Below, piece after piece: positions 11,129-27,179 of a stretch of DNA of 64,000 bases. Numbering within the stretch: the first letter of the stretch is position 1; each line of letters begins with the position of its first letter. Source of the DNA: an uncultured virus (IMG/VR IMGVR_UViG_3300043958_000209) (taxonomy: Duplodnaviria > Heunggongvirae > Uroviricota > Caudoviricetes). The DNA is taken from IMG/VR virus record IMGVR_UViG_3300043958_000209; one strand, given 5' to 3'. The notes under the pieces are model-generated. The model was not told the DNA's origin. It ran no database searches and worked only from the letters and a program-made list of their open reading frames with translations. Made by a program: the position numbers and the translations under genes.

Positions 11129-11872
11129 TTAATCAAATATTACTTCGCAATATAGGAACTCAAATATCACAAGTTTTACTGTTATCCCACCTTCAGCATT
11201 AAGAGATACTTGATAACGATATTGGTTGTCTTGGACATCATTCCAAAAGGCAAGAGCCATGACCTCTCCAGTTTCTATATTTTGGGCTATGAAAGGCACG
11301 AACACACCTCTTGACCCAACTTCAGGAGCTTTATTCATTTCGGGAATTTCGTTAAAACTCAGTGCCGCTTCATCTGAAATGTTGAATGCAAAATCATACC
11401 ATATTTTCGCTTTGACATCATCAAGGTTTACATGGTCAAATTCAAAGCCTGCATGACATCTTGCGAGTTTGAACAGTATGCGAAGTATTCGTTCTTCATC
11501 GGGGTCATAATACACTTTGCCATCATTTTTTTGTATCTGTTTTCTAAGCGTTTCTTGTAGCTTTTTATCCTTCTCATTCCTCACAATGGTCTGTTTATGT
11601 TGAGGACAATCGTCATACACTTGGCTTTTCAACACATCTAAAAAGCAAGCGAGATATTTTTCATCCTCAGAATACCCATTATTGCACTCAAAACAAGCAG
11701 GAATTGTTGGTAAATTTTCTGGATAAGGGTCAACTAAAAATGCTTTAGATGGTATATGTTCTCTTGTGGTAGCAGGACTACCGCAATATATACAGCCATT
11801 GTTTTTGGATTTTTCCCATGAGGTATAATATCCTGCTCCGTTATTACCTCCCAATCTTTTTCTTTGCTCCAT
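11129..11872 (-). CDS. HNH-type endonuclease cargo protein
   Basis: CIYCG...TREHIP...PACFECNNG zinc/HNH motif. AT-rich gene between virB6 and prgI. Confidence 0.7.
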   Translation of the reverse strand: MEQRKRLGGNNGAGYYTSWEKSKNNGCIYCGSPATTREHIPSKAFLVDPYPENLPTIPACFECNNGYSEDEKYLACFLDVLKSQVYDDCPQHKQTIVRNEKDKKLQETLRKQIQKNDGKVYYDPDEERILRILFKLARCHAGFEFDHVNLDDVKAKIWYDFAFNISDEAALSFNEIPEMNKAPEVGSRGVFVPFIAQNIETGEVMALAFWNDVQDNQYRYQVSLNAEGGITVKLVIFEFLYCEVIFD

Positions 11873-11938
11873 TTGTTCATCTCCTTTTTTACAGTATAGC
11901 ATTTAAATCACCCCACATATAGTCAAAATCTGTTAATT

Positions 11939-12813: not shown

Positions 12814-13026
12814 TTAAAACAATCCGCTGAGAAGTGGTACAAGGGTCATGCCAATCAGTGCTACGCCACCGCCTGCCATGAGCTGCTTCATACCCTGTGA
12901 TTTAGCACCGGGGTTATCGTTGCCGTACCCCTCAAGGAGATTGATAACTCCCCAAATGCCAAGTCCTGCTCCAAGGGCGATAACGAGTGTCTGCAATGCG
13001 ACTACTGCTTGATTAAAAAATTCCAT
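12814..13026 (-). CDS. Maff2-family small membrane protein
   Basis: LGAGLGIWGVINLLEGYGNDNPGAKSQGMKQLMAGGG signature. Confidence 0.9.
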   Translation of the reverse strand: MEFFNQAVVALQTLVIALGAGLGIWGVINLLEGYGNDNPGAKSQGMKQLMAGGGVALIGMTLVPLLSGLF

Positions 13027-13180: not shown

Positions 13181-13449
13181 TTATTGCCCGTCTGAGGGCG
13201 GTGGTTCGGTTGTTTCTTCTTTCTTGCTTAAATCATAAACCTCGTACACATCGTTCCCTTTGAACTTTAGTTTGGTGGATAAGAATTTCTCAATGTCAAA
13301 GGCATTTTTCTTATCGAAGTCCGAGGGTATTTGTATTTCGGGTGCTTTGTAATATCGTACTTATCGCTGAAAAAGGGGCGAACACCTCTAAGCTGTAAAA
13401 TACATTTCCCACCGTCCATGACAGATAGCTCATCTATGCTCATAAGCTC
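13181..13449 (-). pseudogene. virD4: virD4 3'-end copy C (probable ancestral end, with a 1-bp frameshift near 13325)
   Basis: Translates ELMSIDELSVMDGGKCILQLRGVRPFFSDKYDITKHPKYKY, then after the frameshift SDFDKKNAFDIEKFLSTKLKFKGNDVYEVYDLSKKEETTEPPPSDGQ*. Confidence 0.9.
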
Positions 13450-13450
13450 A

Positions 13451-13485
13451 TTGCAACATTGTCAAGTGATGAGTTTAAAAAGGGG
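13451..13485 (-). repeat. att-like arm, copy 2
   Basis: + strand TTGCAACATTGTCAAGTGATGAGTTTAAAAAGGGG, near-identical to 15502-15536. Confidence 0.85.
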
Positions 13486-13584
13486 CAAAGAAATATACCC
13501 TCCATTCCGTAATAGAAAAAAGGGTATATCTGTGCTTTTTATGTAAACATAATGAACAACTTAAATCATGTAAACGTATGGGAA

Positions 13585-14142
13585 TTACTGTATTTTATAA
13601 AAGAAAGTTCCTTTCTTCATAGTGTTAACCATAACATCCTCATCCTTAAGGGCTGATGTAATCAGCGATTGTTTCATAGGAACATGTATTGTTGCGACAT
13701 CCGACATGTACTTTTTAAATGTTGGCACTTTATCCCATAGATTTTTTATACTTTGCTTTATTCCCTCGCTATTAGCAATATCCGTTTTCTCATTATAAGC
13801 CGGATAAATAACTATAACTGGTAGGCTTTGCGTATTCATTCCATATTCAAGCTCTTCCTTCAATGCTTTGCTTTCAATAGTATTTGAACTCAAAAACAAA
13901 ATAATATTCTTTGACCCACGTAGACGCTCTCTCAGGCGGTCTCGCAAGGTTTCCCAACTGCTACCATCACGGACACTATAATTTTTGTTGTGTGAATCAA
14001 CAAATGGGAAAGTAGAATCTTTGCCTTTCCACATCCTTAAGGTGTTGTAGTAGCAGAAATCGTGAGCAGTATTAGCTCCAAGATTTGTTTCACTAAATGG
14101 TTCCTTTACATAAAATGCACAATAATTTCCTGTACGGTTCAT
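13585..14142 (-). CDS. thsB: Thoeris ThsB, TIR-domain protein
   Basis: TIR/MTH538-like: YCAF, LRERLRGSKNIILFLS, KALKEELEYG (candidate catalytic Glu), LPVIVIY. Directly downstream of thsA. Confidence 0.85.
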   Translation of the reverse strand: MNRTGNYCAFYVKEPFSETNLGANTAHDFCYYNTLRMWKGKDSTFPFVDSHNKNYSVRDGSSWETLRDRLRERLRGSKNIILFLSSNTIESKALKEELEYGMNTQSLPVIVIYPAYNEKTDIANSEGIKQSIKNLWDKVPTFKKYMSDVATIHVPMKQSLITSALKDEDVMVNTMKKGTFFYKIQ

Positions 14143-14164
14143 ATTCATCCTCCTTTTTATTACC

Positions 14165-14968
14165 TTAAGCAATAAATTTTTTCAAATTATAAAGACTGAT
14201 TTCGTTTATCCTATCGTAAACAACAATAGTAATAGGTGCTTTTAGCTGAACATTGCTTGTTTTTAATGTACAAAGCATACACTTTAGTAGCTCAAATGGA
14301 GATGGTTTTTCAGACACTCCATCAAAACGAGTTATACCATCGCCTAAGATTGGCAAGTAAATCGGTTTTCCAGAATAAACTCGCCCTATTTCCTGCCACA
14401 TTTTGCGCATAATACTTTCGTAATTTAAGTTATCAATGTGTGCTTCATTCTCGTTATTTAAATGTGTTAAGGCTAATAATATAAAATCTTTATATGGAAT
14501 TACATAGCCAAGCGAAACATTGCCGTTGAAGTTTGAAATGAAATCCTTGAATGCTTCAAGCTCTTCACTTTCTTTAAGTTGTTTTATTAGTTGCCCATGG
14601 AGAGATGAATGTGAAATTATTGCATCTTCCTCTGATGAGCTAAAAGTATCATCAACCCCAATAACTTTCCACCCATTTTGTTTAAAAATATCACCTTGAC
14701 GAATTGTAACCTTGATTCCTCTGATTTTCATAGTAACACTGTCTCGTGTATTCCACCACAAAAATACAACAGCAGCTAAATATGAACATAAAAGAGCCAA
14801 TATGGTGGACACGAGACTTATAAACATATTATCAAATATATCAGTAAAAGAAACTCCCAAAATCCCCATTATGGCAGATACACCACCGAAAATTGCAAAA
14901 CCAATCGCAATACTATCTTTCCAAAGTCGACTACTTTTGAATTGATAGATTTTTTTCTGCTTTTCCAA
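14165..14968 (-). CDS. thsA: Thoeris ThsA, two TM helices plus Macro domain (type II Thoeris effector)
   Basis: Two N-terminal TM helices, then KVTIRQGDIF, IISHSSLHGQ and LPILGDGITR Macro-like motifs. TTG start with AGGAG RBS. Confidence 0.85.
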   Translation of the reverse strand: MEKQKKIYQFKSSRLWKDSIAIGFAIFGGVSAIMGILGVSFTDIFDNMFISLVSTILALLCSYLAAVVFLWWNTRDSVTMKIRGIKVTIRQGDIFKQNGWKVIGVDDTFSSSEEDAIISHSSLHGQLIKQLKESEELEAFKDFISNFNGNVSLGYVIPYKDFILLALTHLNNENEAHIDNLNYESIMRKMWQEIGRVYSGKPIYLPILGDGITRFDGVSEKPSPFELLKCMLCTLKTSNVQLKAPITIVVYDRINEISLYNLKKFIA

Positions 14969-15047
14969 TAAAAACGCTCCTCCTTTTCACATGAGCCCTC
15001 GCGCTACTATTATTACAATACATTTTCTAATTTTCTTTCTATCCATA

Positions 15048-15076
15048 ATTATACTACGAAATGCTACTTTTCTCAA
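15048..15076 (-). promoter_or_regulatory. Sigma-A promoter of the Thoeris operon
   Basis: TTGAGA-17 bp-TATAAT. Confidence 0.7.
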
Positions 15077-15221
15077 TACAACGACATTTTTCACACCAAC
15101 ATAGAAAATATACCCTCAGCCCATTATTAGGTGCGAGGGCATATCTGTATAAATTTTACGCCCCAAGCTCACCAACAATAGGGGAGCGCAAAACAAATTA
15201 AACTTCAAACAATAATTTACA

Positions 15222-15500
15222 TTACCTACCATTATACACATTATTCTTACTTAAATCTACCATTTTTATTTTTTCACTTACATCAAAAACCTCATATACA
15301 TCGTTTGGTTTAAGTTTCAGCTTTACGGATAAAAACTTCTCAATGTCAAAGACGTTTTTCTTGTCAAAGTCAGATAGATACATGTATTTTGGGTGGTTTG
15401 TAATATCGTATTTGTCACTGAAAAAGGGGCGAACACCTCTGAGCTGTAAAATGCACTTGCCACCGTCCATAACGGATAGTTTATCCATTGACATGAGTTC
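15222..15500 (-). pseudogene. virD4: virD4 3'-end copy B (intact reading frame, alternative C-terminus)
   Basis: ELMSMDKLSVMDGGKCILQLRGVRPFFSDKY...EVFDVSEKIKMVDLSKNNVYNGR*, highly similar to the last ~80 aa of VirD4. Confidence 0.9.
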
Positions 15501-15501
15501 C

Positions 15502-15536
15502 TTGTAACATTGTCAAGTGACGAGTTTTAAAAAGGG
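15502..15536 (-). repeat. att-like arm, copy 1
   Basis: + strand TTGTAACATTGTCAAGTGACGAGTTTTAAAAAGGG. Confidence 0.85.
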
Positions 15537-15580
15537 TAAAAATAAGAGCTACTAGCTCGTAGTAGCCCTTACTGAGTATC

Positions 15581-16507
15581 TTATATTTCTCTAAAAATCA
15601 GGTCGAAAGATTCACTCAGCTCGTCAAAGAACATTTTGTATACTGGTATTTTTAATGTTTTACCTATCTTAATAAGCTTTTCAATATTGGACTCTGAGCA
15701 ATTCAATCCTATGTATATTTCTTTTGGCTTAGCCACTACATATGGCATTCCTTTAGCATTTGCTCCAGTTGTGCATCTAAATTCATTTTCATAGCTCCAT
15801 GACGAATGTTTTATGTTACAAAAGTAGGATGATAAGAATACTAATGATAAGTCATCAAGCAGGATTTCCTTTTTTCCTTCTGCTCCTTGAATTTCAATCT
15901 GGTTTATCATATATTGAACTTGCTTATCCATAACACTGGTTATATCTATTCGCTCGTTAGTGTATTGGACAGGAAATGTACAACCAGACAATTGCGTGTT
16001 GTGTTTCGTATCATATGAAACACAGTAACCTGAATGATTATTTGCGTAATGCGCCCACATTGGCATTGAGTTTACGCTATTAGCTGTTAAAGAGGATACC
16101 TTAGTAAATGTAGAAAAATCATCTATAAGCCGTCCGCCATGTGGAATTAATCTTTCATATTTTATAAGAGTGTCAGCCTTATAATAAAATGCTTTATTAT
16201 CAAAAGGGTCATTTAAAAACTTAACATCTGACATAAAAATCTTTTGTTGTTCTAAAGTTTGGAGTTTTTGCTGATTAAGTGTCTTGTCATCGGTAAATGA
16301 ATAATACTTATAAAGTGTATCTGGTATATAAAGTCGACTGATTTTATACAGAAGTTGAAAGACCTCATTTTTATTTGCCGAAATATTAATCATGTACATG
16401 AACTTAAAATAATCAACTGGATTCTGCAAACGCCATTTTTCAATATCAAAGTTTTCTTCATCAACAGGGATAGGTTGAAGGTCGTAATGTATATCTTCTA
16501 TTTTCAT
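15581..16507 (-). CDS. DUF2971-like protein
   Basis: LYKY, LNDPFD, MWAHYANNHSGYCVSY and KHSSWSYENEFR motifs. AT-rich. Confidence 0.8.
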   Translation of the reverse strand: MKIEDIHYDLQPIPVDEENFDIEKWRLQNPVDYFKFMYMINISANKNEVFQLLYKISRLYIPDTLYKYYSFTDDKTLNQQKLQTLEQQKIFMSDVKFLNDPFDNKAFYYKADTLIKYERLIPHGGRLIDDFSTFTKVSSLTANSVNSMPMWAHYANNHSGYCVSYDTKHNTQLSGCTFPVQYTNERIDITSVMDKQVQYMINQIEIQGAEGKKEILLDDLSLVFLSSYFCNIKHSSWSYENEFRCTTGANAKGMPYVVAKPKEIYIGLNCSESNIEKLIKIGKTLKIPVYKMFFDELSESFDLIFREI

Positions 16508-16600
16508 ACAATTTATGCCTTTCTTGATTATATTAAAAGAGGACAGGTAGTAAAATTATTTACTATTATACTACATAATCTTTACTGAAATCTATCATTT

Positions 16601-18361
16601 TTATTTAACCTTATCACTGACATCGAAAACCTCATACAAATCGTTTGGTTTTAGCTTCAGCTTTGTGGATAAAAACTTCTCGACATCAAAGGCATTTTTC
16701 TTGTCAAAGTCGGATAGATACTTGTATTTTGGGTGGTTCGTAATATCGTATTTGTCACTGAAAAAAGGGCGAACACCTCTAAGTTGTAAGATGCATTTGC
16801 CACCGTCCATAACGGATAGTTCGTCCATTGACATGAGTTCTTTTCCAAGCCGCTGATAGTTGATACCGTAACTGCGTTGGCTACCTCGAGTGTCGGAGGT
16901 ATTGAACATATCAATGGTTTCTTTGCCGAGGGTTTCAGTCAAATCCTTGAGGGTGGTTTTTTCCTTGCCACCGAGGAAAATCATGCTGTCACAGTTGCCG
17001 ATAATGGTATCGGAGTTGTCTTTGTAGAGTGCTTTTAACTGGCTCTGTGCCTGCAAAACAAGGCAAGCTGAGATTTCACGACTGCGAATGGTTGCCATGA
17101 GCTTCTCAAGGTTTGGTATCTGCCCGATATTGGCACACTCATCAATCAAACACCGCACATGAACAGGTAAGCGACCGCCGTACACATCATCTGCTTTATC
17201 ACAAAGCAAGTTAAATAACTGCGTGTAGCACATGGATACAAGGAAATTGAATGTCGCATCGGTATCACTGATGATAATAAAGAGTGCTGTTTTCCTATCT
17301 CCGAGGGTATCCAGTTCCAGTTCATCATAAGCGGTCAGCTCTCTAAGCTCTTTAATATCAAAGGGAGCGAGCCTTGCACCACAGCTAATTAAAATCGACT
17401 TCGCTGTTTTGCCTGCGGCTAATTTGTACTTCTTATATTGCCTTACGGCAAAGTGCTGAGGGTCTTTTTCCTCGAGCCTATCAAACATCAAATCCACATT
17501 GTTCTTAAATTCCTCATCGTCCTCACGGACTTCACTGGCATTGATAAACTCAATCAGCGTTGTGAAGTTCTGCTCATCTTCGGGGGCTTCATAATAGATA
17601 TAGGCGATAAGGGCGGTGTAGAGCAGTGTTTCTGCTTTCACCCAAAAATCATCGCCTACCTTACCCTCGCCTTTGGTGTTGGCAATCAAGGTAGTAACGA
17701 GCTTTAAAATATCCTTTTCACTTTTGATGTAGGCAAAAGGGTTATAGTGCATGGATTTCTTGAAATTGATAGTGTTGAGGATTTTCACCTTATAGCCCTC
17801 ACGGAGCAGGAGCTTACCGCACTCAATGACGATACTGCCCTTTGGGTCAGTTACTACATAGGAGCTGTGGCATTGCATGAGGTTTGGTTTGAGCCAAAAT
17901 CTTGTTTTCCCACTGCCCGAACCGCCCACAATCAGCACATTTTTATTTCGTGCCGTTTTTGGGTCTTTGGGGCGGTTGTTCATGGTCAGCCGTTCCGTTT
18001 GGGTGAGGATTACATTGTTTTGGAATGTGGGGTCTACATACGGCTCAATGTCTTTTGCGTTGCCCCACCTTGCAGAGCCATACTCCACACCTTTACGGTA
18101 CTTTTTTGCATTTTTACTGCGAATATAGATTATCAGCTTTAGTAATGCACTGATGGCAAGCCCGATGAGTAAGTCGGTGGGATAAAAGGACGGAAACGGT
18201 ACTGCAAAAGCTCTCGATAAGCCCTCGCCCAAATTCAGTATCTTTTGCCCTAAATCAACACCGTTTGTGTGCCGCCATGCTTCAAGCAGCTTTGTAAACA
18301 GCAGCCCCAACACAAGGTAGGGAATGTTAAGGATAAGGAGCTTTTTCATCTTTTTACTCAT
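16601..18361 (-). CDS. virD4: VirD4/TraG type IV coupling protein
   Basis: N-terminal TM helices, Walker A GGSGSGKT, LIDECANIG, TIIGNCD. Confidence 0.95.
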   Translation of the reverse strand: MSKKMKKLLILNIPYLVLGLLFTKLLEAWRHTNGVDLGQKILNLGEGLSRAFAVPFPSFYPTDLLIGLAISALLKLIIYIRSKNAKKYRKGVEYGSARWGNAKDIEPYVDPTFQNNVILTQTERLTMNNRPKDPKTARNKNVLIVGGSGSGKTRFWLKPNLMQCHSSYVVTDPKGSIVIECGKLLLREGYKVKILNTINFKKSMHYNPFAYIKSEKDILKLVTTLIANTKGEGKVGDDFWVKAETLLYTALIAYIYYEAPEDEQNFTTLIEFINASEVREDDEEFKNNVDLMFDRLEEKDPQHFAVRQYKKYKLAAGKTAKSILISCGARLAPFDIKELRELTAYDELELDTLGDRKTALFIIISDTDATFNFLVSMCYTQLFNLLCDKADDVYGGRLPVHVRCLIDECANIGQIPNLEKLMATIRSREISACLVLQAQSQLKALYKDNSDTIIGNCDSMIFLGGKEKTTLKDLTETLGKETIDMFNTSDTRGSQRSYGINYQRLGKELMSMDELSVMDGGKCILQLRGVRPFFSDKYDITNHPKYKYLSDFDKKNAFDVEKFLSTKLKLKPNDLYEVFDVSDKVK

Positions 18362-18834
18362 AGGCTCTGCTCCTTATTTTTATGTTTCACCTTATCCACA
18401 ACGGTGTTTTTCACAATCTGAGCCAACTTTCTAAGCTCTGCAAGCACAGACGGTCTAGCCGCCTTTTTCACTATATCTGCGGTATATTCCTTAAAGGCAT
18501 TGGTAATGGCATCGGCATCTTTGCCTTTGAAAAAGACCACATATTTCGGCGGTACTTCGTGCTTATCTTTCATAACAGCAAAGTCCACACCATACTTTTT
18601 TGCCACACGCTCAAAATCTTTGATGTTTTGGTCGGTGATTTCAATACTGTTCATACCTTGACCTTGCTCGGCAAGCTGTTTTACCGATTGTTTTCCCTGC
18701 GGGATATTGGGGTGGGCTTTTTTGTCTTTCAAATGTGCAAGCAGTTTTAGCATTGCTTTTTTCAGCTCTCTGCCTGTGAGCTTGCCTGCACTGATGACAA
18801 GGGCAACGGTTTTTTGTTCCACTTCTTCCTGCAT
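18358..18834 (-). CDS. pcfB: PcfB-family protein
   Basis: MQEEVEQKTV, GKQSVKQL and AKKYGVDFAV motifs, upstream of virD4. Confidence 0.9.
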   Translation of the reverse strand: MQEEVEQKTVALVISAGKLTGRELKKAMLKLLAHLKDKKAHPNIPQGKQSVKQLAEQGQGMNSIEITDQNIKDFERVAKKYGVDFAVMKDKHEVPPKYVVFFKGKDADAITNAFKEYTADIVKKAARPSVLAELRKLAQIVKNTVVDKVKHKNKEQSL

Positions 18835-23641: not shown

Positions 23642-25213
23642 TTATTCTGCGATATCCACGCTTACGCCGGACTTGAATTCGACGGTGAACTTATCCGTGT
23701 ATACCGTGATGCTTTTTATAAGTTTCCTGACGAGCGTTTCATCGAACACATGAATGTCTGTATTTTGCACGGTGACGAAGTCCTGCAGCTCTTTGATCCG
23801 GTTCATGGCTTCTTCTCTATGGTGATTGTCGACTGTGGACTGCTTCTTCATTTCCTGCAGGCGAACCATCTCGTCAGTGATGGCATTGTAGTCTTTGCCG
23901 CCCTCGACCTTTCGAAGCAATTCTTTCTGTAAATCCTCAAGCCTCAGTTGAATGCCTTCCGGTGAGAGAGTGTCGGTTGTGACGACGGCCCTGGCTACGT
24001 TTTCCTGCAGCTGGGCCAAGAACTCTTTCCTGCCTCGTAGAATCCGGTTTAAGGCTTTGACCGTGACGTCCTCAAGGGCAGCTTCATTTACCGTCCGATT
24101 CGTACAGTTGCTCTCAGCTTCCGATGGCTCCAAGCGGCTGATGCAGCGCCAGACCACGGATTTGCAGCCGTGATTGTTCCAATGAACGCGGCGGTAAAGC
24201 TCGCCACACTCACCGCAGAAGATCATCTGCGCAAAGCAATGATTGCAGGAGAAGCTGCGTTTCTTTCCGGATGGACTGACGTGAACTGCCCGGCGACGGA
24301 CAAGCTCCGCCTGCACCTGCATAAAGAGATCATTCGGAATAATAGCCTCATGATCGTCTTCCACATAGTACTGGGGCACCGTGCCATTGTTCTTGATTCG
24401 CTTCTTGGTAAGGAAGTCGGTGGTATAGGTCTTTTGCAGCAGGGCGTCGCCCATGTATTTTTCGTTCCGGAGAATCTTGTTGATTGTGCTCGTGTGCCAT
24501 TTTTCTTTACCGGCACCGGTAAGGATGTGATCCGCCTCAAGTCTGGAGGCTATTTTGTCCATGCTGAGGCCTTCGAGATATTCGCGATAGATGCGCTTTA
24601 CAACTTCGGACTGTTCAGCGTCAATGATGAGCTTTCCGTCACTGTCTTTCGAGTAACCGAGGAAGCGGTTGCGGTTGACGCTTACTTTTCCCTGCTGGTA
24701 ACGGTACTGCAGACCGAGCTTTACGTTCTGCGAAAGACTCTGGCTTTCCTGCTGGGCAAGCGAAGCCATAATCGTTATAAGAACCTCGCCCTTGGCATCC
24801 ATTGTGTTGATGGATTCCTTTTCAAAGTAGACCGGGATATTTTTATCCTTGAGCTGCCGGATATACTGCAGGCAATCAAGAGTGTTTCGGGCGAATCGGC
24901 TGATGGATTTTGTGATGATCATGTCGATATTTCCAGCCATACACTCGTCAATCATGCGGTTGAACTCATCACGCTTTTTGGTGTTGGTGCCGGAAATACC
25001 GTCATCGGCGAAGATTCCTGCCAGCTCCCATTCTGGATTTTTCTGAATGTACTCCGTGTAGTGGGAGACCTGTGCGTCGTAGCTGGTTTCTTGCTCGTCA
25101 GAATCGGTGCTGACACGGCAGTATGCGGCGACGCGAAGCTTAGGAGCTTCCTCTTTACTGATGTTGTTCCCTACCTGCCTTTTTGCCGGGATAAATGTAA
25201 CGCTTGCCATCAA
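23642..25213 (-). CDS. Large serine recombinase
   Basis: [18 protein letters not shown], recombinase domain, Zn ribbon CGECG. Confidence 0.95.
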
Positions 25214-25632
25214 ATCACCGACCTTTCTATCAGGCTGTAAATGTACTCGGCCTGCGCTGCTGGGTTATCGTAATGCTCGATCATTTTTCCAATGTGAAAT
25301 TGCGTAGGAGCTGACCGTTCCACCTTGCTTTGCTTTCTGTTCAACCGCCCGAGAGCTTTTGCCCGACTCTGCTTTTCGGCTTCGGCCTGTTCGAAGGTTT
25401 CCTTGTCAATGAGGGCCGGATAGAAGCTGTCGCCGAGATAATGACGATTTCCCATGATTCGTTTGGCACCACAATGCTTAACGTCAATACCGGCATCATT
25501 GGCAGCCTTCTGTAATGAAGCACCAGCAAGATAGGTTTCATACAGCTTTTGAATTTTTACGACAGCTTCGTTATCAATAACTGCCTTTCCATTTTCAATC
25601 TTGTACCCATAGGGTGTGTGTCCCATTTTCAT
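25210..25632 (-). CDS. Small recombinase-domain protein (middle gene of the triad)
   Basis: [18 protein letters not shown] and [10 protein letters not shown] motifs. Confidence 0.8.
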
Positions 25633-27179
25633 ATCCTTTCCTTGAGCGAGAGGCCGCATTTTAGTTCGAAGTGGTACTCGGTTCTGCTGATTACAGTTAT
25701 CCGGCTCACATGTTTTTCAAATAATTCTTCATTGAAGACTTCCAGCATTTCCTCTTTTTCGGCAAAGTGAAGAAGGGCGGTTGCTGCATTGACCTTAGAA
25801 ACATCCGACGAAACGTTATTGCTTTGCGCATCCATTTCTTTTCGGATGTGGTCAGCCTTTGTCAGAAGCTCATTTGTTTCCTTTGTAAAGAGTACCTTAT
25901 CAAGGAATCCCTGTGCGGCCAGCTGCTGGAGCCTTTCACGCTGCTCGGTGTTCTGAGCGAGTTCAGTCGTTAGCTCCTGAATCCGACGTAGGGAATCGTC
26001 TGTGGATTCTGTCTTGAGGGCCTCTGTATAAGGCTTCAGCAAGTAGCGATGAGCGAAGACCAGCTTGTTCATCATCGCGATAAAAGCCAGCTTCAGGTCA
26101 TCGTCCTTTATGGATTTCATGTCGCAGGCGTCCCTGTCGTTCAGATGCGTATTACAGCACCATGCTATATAACTGTCGCCAGATGTGTAATGTGTCCGGC
26201 GCTTGAAGGTGCTGCCACATTTGCCGCAGATTATTTTCCCTGAGAAGGCATAGCGATTCTGGTACTTCTCATTGTCCGGAATGACGTTTTTCTCTTTGGC
26301 ATGCTGCTTTAACATCTTACCAGCGGCTTCAAACTCGCTGTGGCTGATGATTGCTTCGTGATGATCTGATACAAAGTACTGATTTTTCTCACCGCGATTG
26401 TGGTGGCGGTTGAACTGCGCATCCGTGTAGGTCTTCTGGAAAAGAACATCGCCGGTATACTTCTCATTTGTCAGAATCCCTTTGACTGTGGATGCGCTCC
26501 AGTGATGACCTTTTCTGGTGGGAATTTTTTCTCCATTCAGCATGTTGGCAATTTTTGCGGTGCCAATGCCAGAAAGAGCAGAAGCGAAAATCCTTTTTAC
26601 AATTGCCGCCTGCTCCGGGTTGACGACTATGTTCTGCTTATTCCAATCGTAGCCGTAGGGCGGGCATCCGATCTTGAACGTCGCGTTTTCAAATCGGCGC
26701 TGCACAGACCACTTGCTATTCTTTGAAATAGATAGGGATTCGTCTGCGGCCATACTGGAAAGGATTGATAGAAATAATTCGCTTTCCATGGAGCCGGTAT
26801 TGATGTTTTCTTTCTCAAAGAAAATGGGGATATGCAGGGCGAGAAGCTTTCTGACAAGCTCAAGGCAGTCAGCAGTGTTGCGGCTGATTGATTTCGAGAT
26901 GATAAAATCTATCTTCCCGGCTTTGCAGTCGGCAAGCATGCGGTTCAGCTCAGGACGTTTCTCCTTCTTTGTACCTGTGATACCTTCATCATAATAAACG
27001 CCAGCACACTTCCAATCATTCCGGGCGGCAATATAGTTTTCATAGTGTGTGACCTGTGCTTCAAGACTTTCTGCCTGCGCGTCAGAGTCTGTGCTGACAC
27101 GGCAATAAGCAGCTACACGGAGCTTTCGCTTAGCATCAGTTACATTTTTGTTTTCTTCGATTTTTGTTATTTTTTTCAA
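25629..27179 (-). CDS. Large serine recombinase with an apparent 3-residue deletion in the SRFxRN motif
   Basis: AAYCRVSTD is present, but KSISRNTADC replaces the [13 protein letters not shown] seen in the paralog. Confidence 0.85.
   Translation of the reverse strand: MKKITKIEENKNVTDAKRKLRVAAYCRVSTDSDAQAESLEAQVTHYENYIAARNDWKCAGVYYDEGITGTKKEKRPELNRMLADCKAGKIDFIISKSISRNTADCLELVRKLLALHIPIFFEKENINTGSMESELFLSILSSMAADESLSISKNSKWSVQRRFENATFKIGCPPYGYDWNKQNIVVNPEQAAIVKRIFASALSGIGTAKIANMLNGEKIPTRKGHHWSASTVKGILTNEKYTGDVLFQKTYTDAQFNRHHNRGEKNQYFVSDHHEAIISHSEFEAAGKMLKQHAKEKNVIPDNEKYQNRYAFSGKIICGKCGSTFKRRTHYTSGDSYIAWCCNTHLNDRDACDMKSIKDDDLKLAFIAMMNKLVFAHRYLLKPYTEALKTESTDDSLRRIQELTTELAQNTEQRERLQQLAAQGFLDKVLFTKETNELLTKADHIRKEMDAQSNNVSSDVSKVNAATALLHFAEKEEMLEVFNEELFEKHVSRITVISRTEYHFELKCGLSLKERI

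Follow-up and report, generated by a model that had tools for sequence, protein, structure and literature searches.

How does the 3' end of one conjugation gene come to stand three times in a row, with foreign genes between the copies? The question arises in a stretch of 64,000 nucleotides (nt) from an uncultured virus of the Caudoviricetes (IMG/VR record IMGVR_UViG_3300043958_000209), which at its full length is called the window in the following. From position 1 to ~22.3 kb the window holds the transfer module of an integrative and conjugative element (ICE), whose left end runs off the window, and within this module two short units follow one another at the 3' end of virD4, the gene of the coupling protein. 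An initial annotation, made from the sequence alone, took them for an integron-like, expandable platform of anti-phage cassettes. Here, we observe that both units lie between GA dinucleotides, lack a recombinase, carry predicted defence genes and end in the right end of a family of elements whose delimited members truncate virD4, whereas the virD4 of the window is intact. The explanation that we favour, and to which we give about an even chance, is that the units are non-autonomous derivatives of such elements, inserted in trans as small circles and now stranded.

Architecture of the array

The last ~80 codons of virD4 are present as three direct copies, A, B and C, for which a repeat search gives start-to-start spacings of 2051 and 1340 nt; for one pair of copies the distance is 2050 instead of 2051 nt, owing to a 1-nt deletion in copy C. 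The copies are only 70-88% identical to one another, and in the alignment the homology of all three begins at one GA on the minus strand (16840/39, 15500/499 and 13449/48; codon K/ELMS). Directly before B and before C stands a common arm of ~37-45 nt, CCCyTTTTwAAACTCrTCACTTGACAATGTTrCAAk, which is followed by the GA. The repeat search and the alignment thus confirm the three direct copies with one break point, the same arm before both orphan copies and the units of 1340 and 2051 bp that had been annotated. The arm is also, as supposed, a genuine recombination end, and both junctions fall on one crossover dinucleotide.

Both units have a left module of ~315 nt and a right module of ~45 nt in common and differ in their cargo (Table 1). 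Copies A and B remain alike for 48-74 nt beyond the stop codon, i.e., into a shared leader. In copy B the stop codon is gone and the frame runs 17 codons into the leader; in copy C one base is missing near 13325, which results in a frameshift. The GC content is 0.28-0.38 in the units versus 0.43-0.47 in the backbone. According to the list of open reading frames (ORFs) and Pfam, neither unit encodes a recombinase, a relaxase or a rep protein, in agreement with the initial annotation. A search of the array against Rfam gave nothing credible (a single match, E 0.45). In unit 2, a second, arm-less hairpin (ACAGATATrCCCT...GAGGGTATATTT) is located between the leader and the promoter-like site of thsA.

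Table 1. Features of the array and its flanking genes, in window positions; aa, amino acids; TM, transmembrane segment.
Feature	Position	Strand	Content or evidence
DUF3801 gene (pcfB-like), upstream of virD4	18358..18834	-	Pfam DUF3801 1e-40
virD4, 586 aa, intact	16601..18361	-	Pfam T4SS-DNA_transf 2e-53, TraG-D_C 3.5e-33
virD4 body	up to GA 16840/39	-	native to the ICE
Unit 1, 1340 bp	15501..16840	-	GA + module A, leader, DUF2971/PDC-S31 gene, terminator-like hairpin, right-end arm
Unit 1, module A	16840-16601	-	last 80 codons of virD4, foreign
Unit 1, leader	16600-16527	-	
Unit 1, DUF2971/PDC-S31 gene	16507-15581	-	
Unit 1, terminator-like hairpin	15558-15546	-	
Unit 1, right-end arm	about 15545-15501	-	core 15519-15503
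Unit 2, 2051 bp	13450..15500	-	GA + module B, leader, arm-less hairpin, thsA, thsB, hairpin + arm
Unit 2, orphan virD4 3' module B	15500-15261	-	stop lost, ORF ends at 15222
Unit 2, leader	about 15265-15197	-	
Unit 2, arm-less copy of the pre-arm hairpin	about 15148-15099	-	
Unit 2, thsA	14968-14165	-	TM + Macro
Unit 2, thsB	14172-13585	-	TIR
Unit 2, hairpin + right-end arm	about 13495-13450	-	core 13468-13452
Orphan copy C	13181..13449	-	original virD4 3' end of the ICE, frameshifted relic
maff2, next backbone gene	12814..13026	-	Pfam Maff2 6.5e-41; protein 100% identical in L022

The array is not an assembly artefact, a concern that the initial annotation had raised itself. It is 100% identical over 5301 bases in a second genome (G001) and identical over 5217 nt in a metagenome contig (L168), and a 4276-nt Logan contig of run X1, which is possibly not independent of the window DNA, spans it as a whole.

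Cargo and expression signals

Unit 1 encodes a DUF2971 protein of 308 aa (Pfam DUF2971, 2.7e-12), which matches the PADLOC profile PDLC04990 of PDC-S31 (4.4e-35), a candidate defence system whose defence role is predicted. In unit 2, a ThsA with a Macro domain (PADLOC ThsA 1e-57, Pfam ThsA_Macro 2e-32) and a ThsB with a TIR domain (PADLOC ThsB 1e-70, Pfam ThsB_TIR 1e-22) are encoded side by side. This is the gene content of a type II Thoeris system, which the pair would form as judged by sequence. No NCBIfam family was found for the cargo of the units. Pfam and PADLOC thus bear out the annotated cargo, a DUF2971-like gene and a thsA-thsB operon, with a putative anti-phage role.

The conserved promoter that had been annotated in each unit holds in part. 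The shared leader of A and B does contain TATAAT, and unit 1 has a promoter-like site TTTACT-16-TATAAT at 16554..16527. However, the leader immediately precedes the cargo gene in unit 1 only; in unit 2, the site most like a thsA promoter is separate from the leader and located further downstream (TTGAGA-17-TATAAT, 15076..15048).

The arm as the right end of an element family

Of 401 genomes in which each genus of the family is represented once, 135 gave matches in a six-frame search with the 80-aa tail, and many of these matches lie in orphan-sized frames. At eight of 20 tail loci examined the arm lies directly before the orphan tail, with no virD4 body within 10 kb. Seven of these eight loci were scanned with Pfam (L011, whose ORF layout mirrors that of L004, was left out). 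In six of them a protein of 482-560 aa with Resolvase, Recombinase, Zn_ribbon and DUF4368 domains is encoded 1.5-3.7 kb inside the arm, in the seventh 5.2 kb inside. The serine recombinase that the initial annotation had supposed to accompany the arm is therefore found, as a DUF4368 type and at every scanned locus. Aligned with annotated TndX over 97% of its length, it is 34.5% identical. Usually, a VapE-like gene is located upstream of the recombinase gene, and variable cargo between the latter and the arm. As an exact pattern, the arm occurs in at least 120 stretches of a collection of 185k species; among the matches listed, the virD4 tail follows right after the GA in at least 25 of 80 arm loci, and the others have unrelated targets. 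From these surveys the arm emerges as the conserved right end of a broad element family with a GA crossover, for which virD4 codon ~506 is one favoured target. By its sequence features, this family belongs to the mobilisable elements of the Tn6104/Tn4451 kind, with a predicted large serine recombinase similar to TndX and TnpX.

Both arms of the window match the 17-nt core of the family with no mismatch, and their flanks fit the family pattern (hairpin, T-run, ...TCAyCACTTGACAwTGTkGCAnnGA). The arm subtype ...AATGTTGCA occurs in elements of the E405/L103 type, whose DUF4368 recombinase is taken as the cognate candidate. One more match to the unit-1 arm subtype, in G370:C147, has neither the flanks nor the GA; it was judged a chance match and not a third arm.

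This is in good agreement with published elements, for which the papers given here and below by PMC number are cited from excerpts of their text. Serine-recombinase integrative and mobilisable elements (IMEs) are described to enter internal sites of traG/VirD4 of Tn5252-superfamily ICEs and to disrupt the gene (PMC5357655, PMC5704250). Tn6104 measures 15.6 kb, encodes a recombinase related to TnpX, shows a 2-bp repeat and excises; it is located within a CTn5-like ICE, in the conjugation module, and transfer of this ICE was not demonstrated (PMC3158075). For Tn4451, which has no recombination directionality factor, "numerous sites (GA)" are given as integration targets (PMC5704250), and the targets of TndX have a central GA (PMC4430133).

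Seven full-length relatives of 10.9-22 kb could be delimited between virD4 body and arm (E404a, E404b, E405, E407, E403, E155 and E145). Their canonical order is virD4 body, GA, left end, VapE-like gene, recombinase, cargo, terminator hairpin, arm, GA, orphan tail and maff2; as exceptions, the VapE-like gene is unmatched in E405 and E407, and maff2 is missing after E407. The left end, GA followed by TATGCCATA..GTGAAGAG, is an imperfect inverted repeat of the arm. It was found in all seven elements and also in E175, whose left flank has no virD4 body match. All seven truncate VirD4 after codon ~508 and add 4-35 unrelated codons. The initial annotation had regarded it as established that serine-integrase elements repair the 3' end of virD4. 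This is not what the delimited relatives do, and the excerpts of PMC5357655 describe disruption of traG.

The canonical left end is missing from the array, where a virD4 tail follows each GA instead. The right junctions are of the attR type (arm-GA-tail), and the left junction (body-GA-tail) resembles a target, without the left half-site of an element. A pairing of TTGACA in the arm with TGTCAA in the tail was rejected as the recombination inverted repeat; its spacing is asymmetric, and the true inverted repeat is the canonical left end. When the circle joint of canonical elements is reconstructed, TTGACA-17-CATAAT/CATACT arises, pointing into the element, in all seven joints evaluated (E404a, E404b, E405, E403, E175, E155 and E145, from loci L149-L151, L154, L183+L190, L192+L004 and L005+L193; E407 and the decayed E339 were left out). 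The arm junctions of the window have TGTCAA or TGAGCA at the -10 position. For Tn4451, a tnpX promoter formed at the joint was reportedly described by Lyras and Rood in 2000.

Defence genes also occupy the arm-proximal slot of canonical elements. According to PADLOC, 4 out of 10 carry such genes (PD-T7-1, a SIR2 protein, DUF4297-HerA, and AbiQ with PDC-S33), and a fifth has an FtsK/HerA-like ATPase there, which is ambiguous. The scan comprised 36 proteins, namely 33 of 53 cargo-region ORFs and, from L004 and L010, three ORFs next to the arm; duplicate ORFs from elements already represented, the known set of sigma factors and ABC transporters, and three ORFs of L183 at or beyond the recombinase gene were dropped from the 53.

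A decayed member of the family, E339/L174 (L174+L191, G339:C24), has the arm and an orphan virD4 tail, and of its recombinase no more than a fragment of 56 codons is left, 279 nt away from the arm; there is no left end or virD4 body within 32 kb. The virD4 genes of relatives are also split at further recurrent codons, ~96-101, ~178-182 and ~311-328 (G403:C1, E145 = G145:C2, L017-L021 and L014). In E145, the insert at codon ~96 carries a different serine recombinase (31% identity). No arm was seen at the codon-313 breaks of L017-L021, and L014 has a 2.5-kb insert at codon 457. The recurrent splits fit the published "traG site 1 / site 2" pattern.

The empty site and a mosaic virD4

The gene order of the ICE is ArdC/YodL, topoisomerase III, CD1107-like, CHAP hydrolase, VirB4-like, PrgI, TrbL_2, Maff2, VirD4, DUF3801, DUF6017, ParB and ParA. 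According to excerpts of PMC12084326, Tn1549-family ICEs have this organisation, with DUF3801-virD4-maff2-virB6-virB3 as their backbone order. We assign the ICE to the Tn1549/Tn5252 type, with a Lachnospiraceae-like host.

A near-identical ICE, L022 (genome G100), provides the empty site with a single GA. Its VirD4 body is 98% identical at the aa level, and it equals the window up to ...GGAAAAGA, where an intact C-type tail, the same terminator and maff2 follow; no arm is present at its virD4 site. Compared with L022, the window has 3391 bp extra, exactly from GA to GA, which identifies copy C as the displaced native virD4 end. Copy C is 92.5% identical over 361 nt to the intact virD4 3' end of L022 and the region downstream of it.

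A recombinase gene is absent from the ICE part within the window (1 to ~22300). The nearest ones in the window, at 23642-27179 beside prophage lysis genes, have no DUF4368 and share 27-29% identity with the arm-linked recombinase. In G001, a genome of 97% completeness, there is no arm beyond the two of the array and no recombinase closer than 43% identity.

The virD4 gene of the window is a mosaic. Its body shares 95.7% nt identity with that of L022 at a synonymous divergence (dS) of 0.19, and the last 111 nt are identical. Against the C-type tail of L022, tail A has a dS of about 1.8 at a ratio of nonsynonymous to synonymous divergence (omega) of 0.03, and tail B a dS of about 1.75 at an omega of 0.045; between tails A and B, dS is 0.49 and omega 0.085, and the modules of tail and leader are 12% divergent. 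Set against the dS of the body, these values show that tails A and B are foreign to the backbone, evolved as functional VirD4 ends under strong purifying selection, and predate the split between the two ICEs. As A and B had also separated before this split, they arrived as two related modules that already existed, and not as one that was duplicated locally. An AT-amelioration of the tails was considered and rejected, GC and GC3 (GC at third codon positions) being alike in A, B and the C-type tail.

VirD4 proteins were compared among the best 120 hits, ranked on the tail alone, of which 109 are full-length. A/B-type tails occur in 19 of these 109; 14 are 99-100% identical in the tail to the VirD4 protein of the window, and five are distinct variants (P0015, P0016, P0017, P0022 and P0023). 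All 19 sit on bodies of one tight ICE clade, the majority of which has C-type tails. On the tree of VirD4 bodies the tail label needs 7 changes versus 16.9 for shuffled labels; A/B tails are scattered, at weak branch support that also allows a single origin. In P0016, P0123 and P0128, too, the frame of the tail continues into the leader; P0128 is a further orphan of the B type. P0123, P0121 and P0135 are near-identical orphan-tail variants in other metagenome contigs: one is a B copy with an altered homopolymer length in the A-run before the leader, which results in a different tail, and one is a C-type orphan with the tail sequence of the window without the frameshift.

Distribution of the array

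The arm occurs in 23 of the 401 genomes, with 32 matches including one chance match, and only G001 has two arms within 5 kb. All array-bearing runs (18 out of 18, from 12 studies) contain 100% of the sampled words of the array, and no run contains only a part of them; their sources are manure, biogas, bioreactor sludge and isolates of one organism. A blastn comparison of the whole array with about 160 loci revealed no similarity to cargo or leader except in L169, and no full-length element with this cargo. Among metagenome contigs, a 24-nt leader pattern matched only L168 and L169. In viral contigs, a 21-nt leader pattern gave three chance matches in one unrelated gene, and a 28-nt pattern of the A/B tail gave none.

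L169 (1-1556) is an ENA metagenome contig that ends in 126 nt 100% identical to the leader and to the opening 27 nt of the DUF2971 gene, from the virD4 stop codon onwards. The rest is unrelated; it comprises pilin-like genes, a stretch resembling a tRNA, and a truncated ORF of a Tat/lipobox lipoprotein type whose frame continues into the leader. The contig may represent a second context of leader and DUF2971 gene, or an overlap in the assembly graph.

Origin of the units

In the explanation that we favour, and could as easily see refuted as upheld, the target would be the GA dinucleotide at virD4 codon 506/507, the preferred site of the family. Each unit keeps the right end of the family, i.e., cargo slot, terminator hairpin and an arm of ~33 nt ending in GA, and a functional foreign virD4 3' module with a short leader stands where the canonical left end and the core with the VapE-like gene and the DUF4368 recombinase would be. 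It would enter as a small circle with the joint arm-GA-virD4 tail, and a recombinase of the TndX/TnpX type, supplied in trans by a co-resident full-length element, would recombine this joint with the virD4 target at GA. The incoming tail would become the new gene end, and the previous tail would be pushed downstream. Presumably, unit 2 arrived before unit 1: it would have displaced the native tail C, which was later frameshifted, and unit 1 would then have displaced tail B, whose stop codon was lost. An intact virD4 would be kept by selection, and the units would now be stranded and fixed, the cognate recombinase not being found in the host. Since the units leave the coupling protein whole, the ICE would keep its transfer gene and gain two self-promoted, predicted anti-phage systems. 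Of the annotated proposal that cassettes are moved in trans, one part survives: a recombinase in trans is the most economical explanation of the insertion. An active or general platform is unsupported.

Several observations weigh against insertion as small circles. The array has no canonical left half-site, so that an attR-like arm-GA-tail would have to recombine with an attB-like virD4. The family of mini-units is represented by two units in one array and by indirect protein evidence. The extra arm-less hairpin of unit 2 is expected of a rearranged relic, and the boundary in L169 lies at the virD4 stop and not at the GA, which is why unit 1 may be composite. None of the 11 other arm-virD4 junctions whose upstream sequence extends to 5 kb or more has a second C-terminal virD4 copy, and none of 80 arm loci from the collection of 185k species, among the matches listed, has a second tail or mini-unit within 10 kb. 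In 399 class-level genomes, G001 aside, neither an A/B module nor the leader was found (no match above 79%, none past the stop; two candidates per genome were scored, and two genomes were unscored). Finally, the assembled contigs of four runs, of which only X1 covers the array well and X2, X3 and X15 almost not at all, contain no circle joint, unit-sized deletion, single-unit form or empty site of this lineage; in assembled contigs, this is no evidence that such forms do not occur. Two joints, 13614>16524 and 17208>17283, were discounted as array variants; their short sides measure 22 and 29 nt, each occurs in one contig, and both are off the GA sites.

A related possibility, which we hold only tentatively and find rather doubtful, is that the A/B tails and the leader are the left ends of a long-lived, recombinase-less mini-IME lineage, which borrows the DUF4368 recombinase of Tn6104-like elements and turns an ICE-disabling site into a benign dock. 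If this were true, the ICE would stay transmissible while gathering defence cargo, and the tail would be a gene fragment under purifying selection in a mobile cassette, not part of any one virD4. Alternatively, the units could have arisen by decay and repair in situ, along the route of cis-mobilisable elements (CIMEs). Two full-length elements with their own recombinase, inserted in succession, would have truncated virD4 and lost their left end and core, and the gene would have been mended, at once or later, with the virD4 end and leader of another ICE, without small circles. Decay to remnants flanked by att sites and subsequent accretion is a published three-step scenario (PMC5704250), and the decayed relative E339/L174 exists. 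An arm-less duplicate of its own hairpin in unit 2, an arrangement fixed wherever it is found and mini-units unique to this lineage in the samples likewise agree with decay. What makes it unlikely in our view is the left junction exactly at GA, with 111 identical nt before it and a synonymously saturated tail right after it; such a junction argues for site-specific, not homologous or illegitimate, joining. Moreover, two independent repairs would be needed, with related and yet 12% divergent modules that end after a similar 48-74 nt, and the best 120 hits include no donor VirD4, i.e., one with an A/B tail on a co-diverged body.

The initial annotation had gone further and proposed an active, integron-like platform, on which a recombinase in trans would routinely add, remove and reorder minimal defence cassettes at the 3' end of virD4. 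The conserved unit ends with different cargo are in line with it, and the intact virD4 keeps a usable target, so that the array could grow. The VirD4 comparison points the same way, with A/B tails in 19 of 109 proteins, five distinct variants, fewer label changes on the body tree than after shuffling (7 vs 16.9), and three tails (P0016, P0123, P0128) that reach into the leader; omega values of 0.03-0.09 indicate that the tails were functional for long. However, number, order and cargo of the units are invariant in G001, in L168 and in all 18 runs, two arms within 5 kb occur in one of 23 arm-bearing genomes, and the null results at the 11 junctions, at the 80 listed arm loci and in the class-level genomes tell against a platform as well. 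It has no recombinase of its own in the ICE part in the window and no cognate one in the host genome G001, and the poorly supported body tree allows a single origin on its starred branches. A fixed arrangement and homologous elements with their own recombinase had been named beforehand as evidence to the contrary, and both were found; we consider the platform improbable. A cargo hotspot of the ICE, filled by homologous recombination between ICE variants with the repeated 3' ends as by-products of unequal exchange, is hardly credible. The virD4-maff2 interval is indeed variable among relatives, and the same ICE has a second, arm-less insertion between trbL and prgI. Yet the canonical right end of a recombinase-borne family stands before each orphan copy, all three breakpoints fall on one GA, and repeats of 70-88% identity are poor substrates for homologous exchange.

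Neighbouring insertions in the window

The arm-less insertion just mentioned, at 11129-11902 on the minus strand, separates trbL/virB6 from prgI/virB3. It is an AT-rich ORF of 257 aa with an HNH-like motif (CxxC...H). L022 lacks it and has prgI directly after trbL; the ORF has no flanking arm and belongs to no Pfam, PADLOC or NCBIfam family. Mechanistically, it is a cargo insertion of its own, the second in this ICE. At the ParA end, the ICE is abutted by a prophage (23642-63500) with genes for lysis, tail, capsid, portal, terminase and replication. The prophage carries two large serine recombinases without DUF4368, at 23642-25213 and 25629-27179. G001, whose ICE region is identical, shares only 26% of the words of the window, which suggests that most of the prophage is missing there.

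Comparison with known systems

The closest known elements are Tn6104 and the IME_traG group (IME_Sco1050_traG_site1/2), with the same kind of target, an internal site of the coupling-protein gene, and a 2-bp crossover. The full-length relatives described here share with them the TnpX/TndX-like recombinase as well as sigma factors, ABC transporters and two-component systems (L005, L008). In contrast, the units of the window have no recombinase, replication or mobilisation genes and no left end, and they measure 1.3-2.1 kb versus 11-22 kb. Moreover, these elements disrupt virD4 (PMC5357655, PMC3158075), whereas the units restore it. With Tn4451/Tn4453 (TnpX) and Tn5397 (TndX) the family of the window arm has the GA crossover and the DUF4368-type recombinase in common, and TTGACA of the arm faces a -10-like hexamer in the reconstructed canonical joint; in these transposons one recombinase serves both directions (PMC5704250). 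They are autonomous, however, and Tn4451 has a low target specificity, whereas the units lack a recombinase gene and the left end that would form the joint promoter.

CIMEs such as those related to ICESt1/ICESt3 likewise lack recombination and transfer genes, lie in tandem at an att site of a gene 3' end, bring a replacement end that keeps the gene intact, and could be excised or transferred only with outside help. They differ in that they have attL and attR of a tyrosine integrase and lie beside an ICE. Here, the units belong to a serine-recombinase family that normally has no gene-restoring end, their left junction is like an unoccupied target and not an attL, and they sit inside an essential transfer gene of the ICE. 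With regard to a CIME-like derivation by deletion, canonical elements have a right module and a defence slot that match those of the units, and they do not contain the left module.

Integron cassettes resemble the units as small one- or two-gene units arranged head to tail at one site, with conserved recombination ends and the newest probably nearest to the entry. Here, however, there is no platform integrase in the ICE part in the window, no attI/attC hairpins and no common promoter Pc, each unit having its own promoter-like site; the chemistry is that of a serine and not a tyrosine recombinase, and no cassette variability was observed. ICE hotspots of the SXT/R391 type carry defence cargo, too, and offer anti-phage systems a variable slot between conserved transfer genes. 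Those hotspots are intergenic, whereas the slot described here is made by site-specific insertion into coding sequence with end replacement.

Significance

An IME with a serine recombinase in the coupling-protein gene is believed to disable its host ICE for as long as it stays integrated. Insertion of IMEs into traG is already known, as are CIME-like remnants and tandem accretion, the latter two from PMC5704250. What is new are recombinase-less defence units that restore virD4 and putatively derive from the right end of IMEs of this kind. For the virD4 site, a gene-restoring left end was not found described in the literature, including the excerpts of PMC5704250, PMC5357655, PMC3158075, PMC4430133 and PMC12084326; the scope was the main text of openly available papers.

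From a biological point of view, the array represents a way out of the conflict between IME and ICE: a functional replacement for the severed gene end would let defence cargo join an essential transfer gene without a cost for transfer. It is also a natural test of how strict TndX/TnpX-type recombinases are about their half-sites, and of the need for the last 80 residues of VirD4 in transfer. If the units do move in trans, they would form a layer on top of the ICE/IME hierarchy that resembles miniature inverted-repeat transposable elements or cassettes, and would offer anti-phage systems a route to spread with conjugative elements in gut, manure and digester communities.

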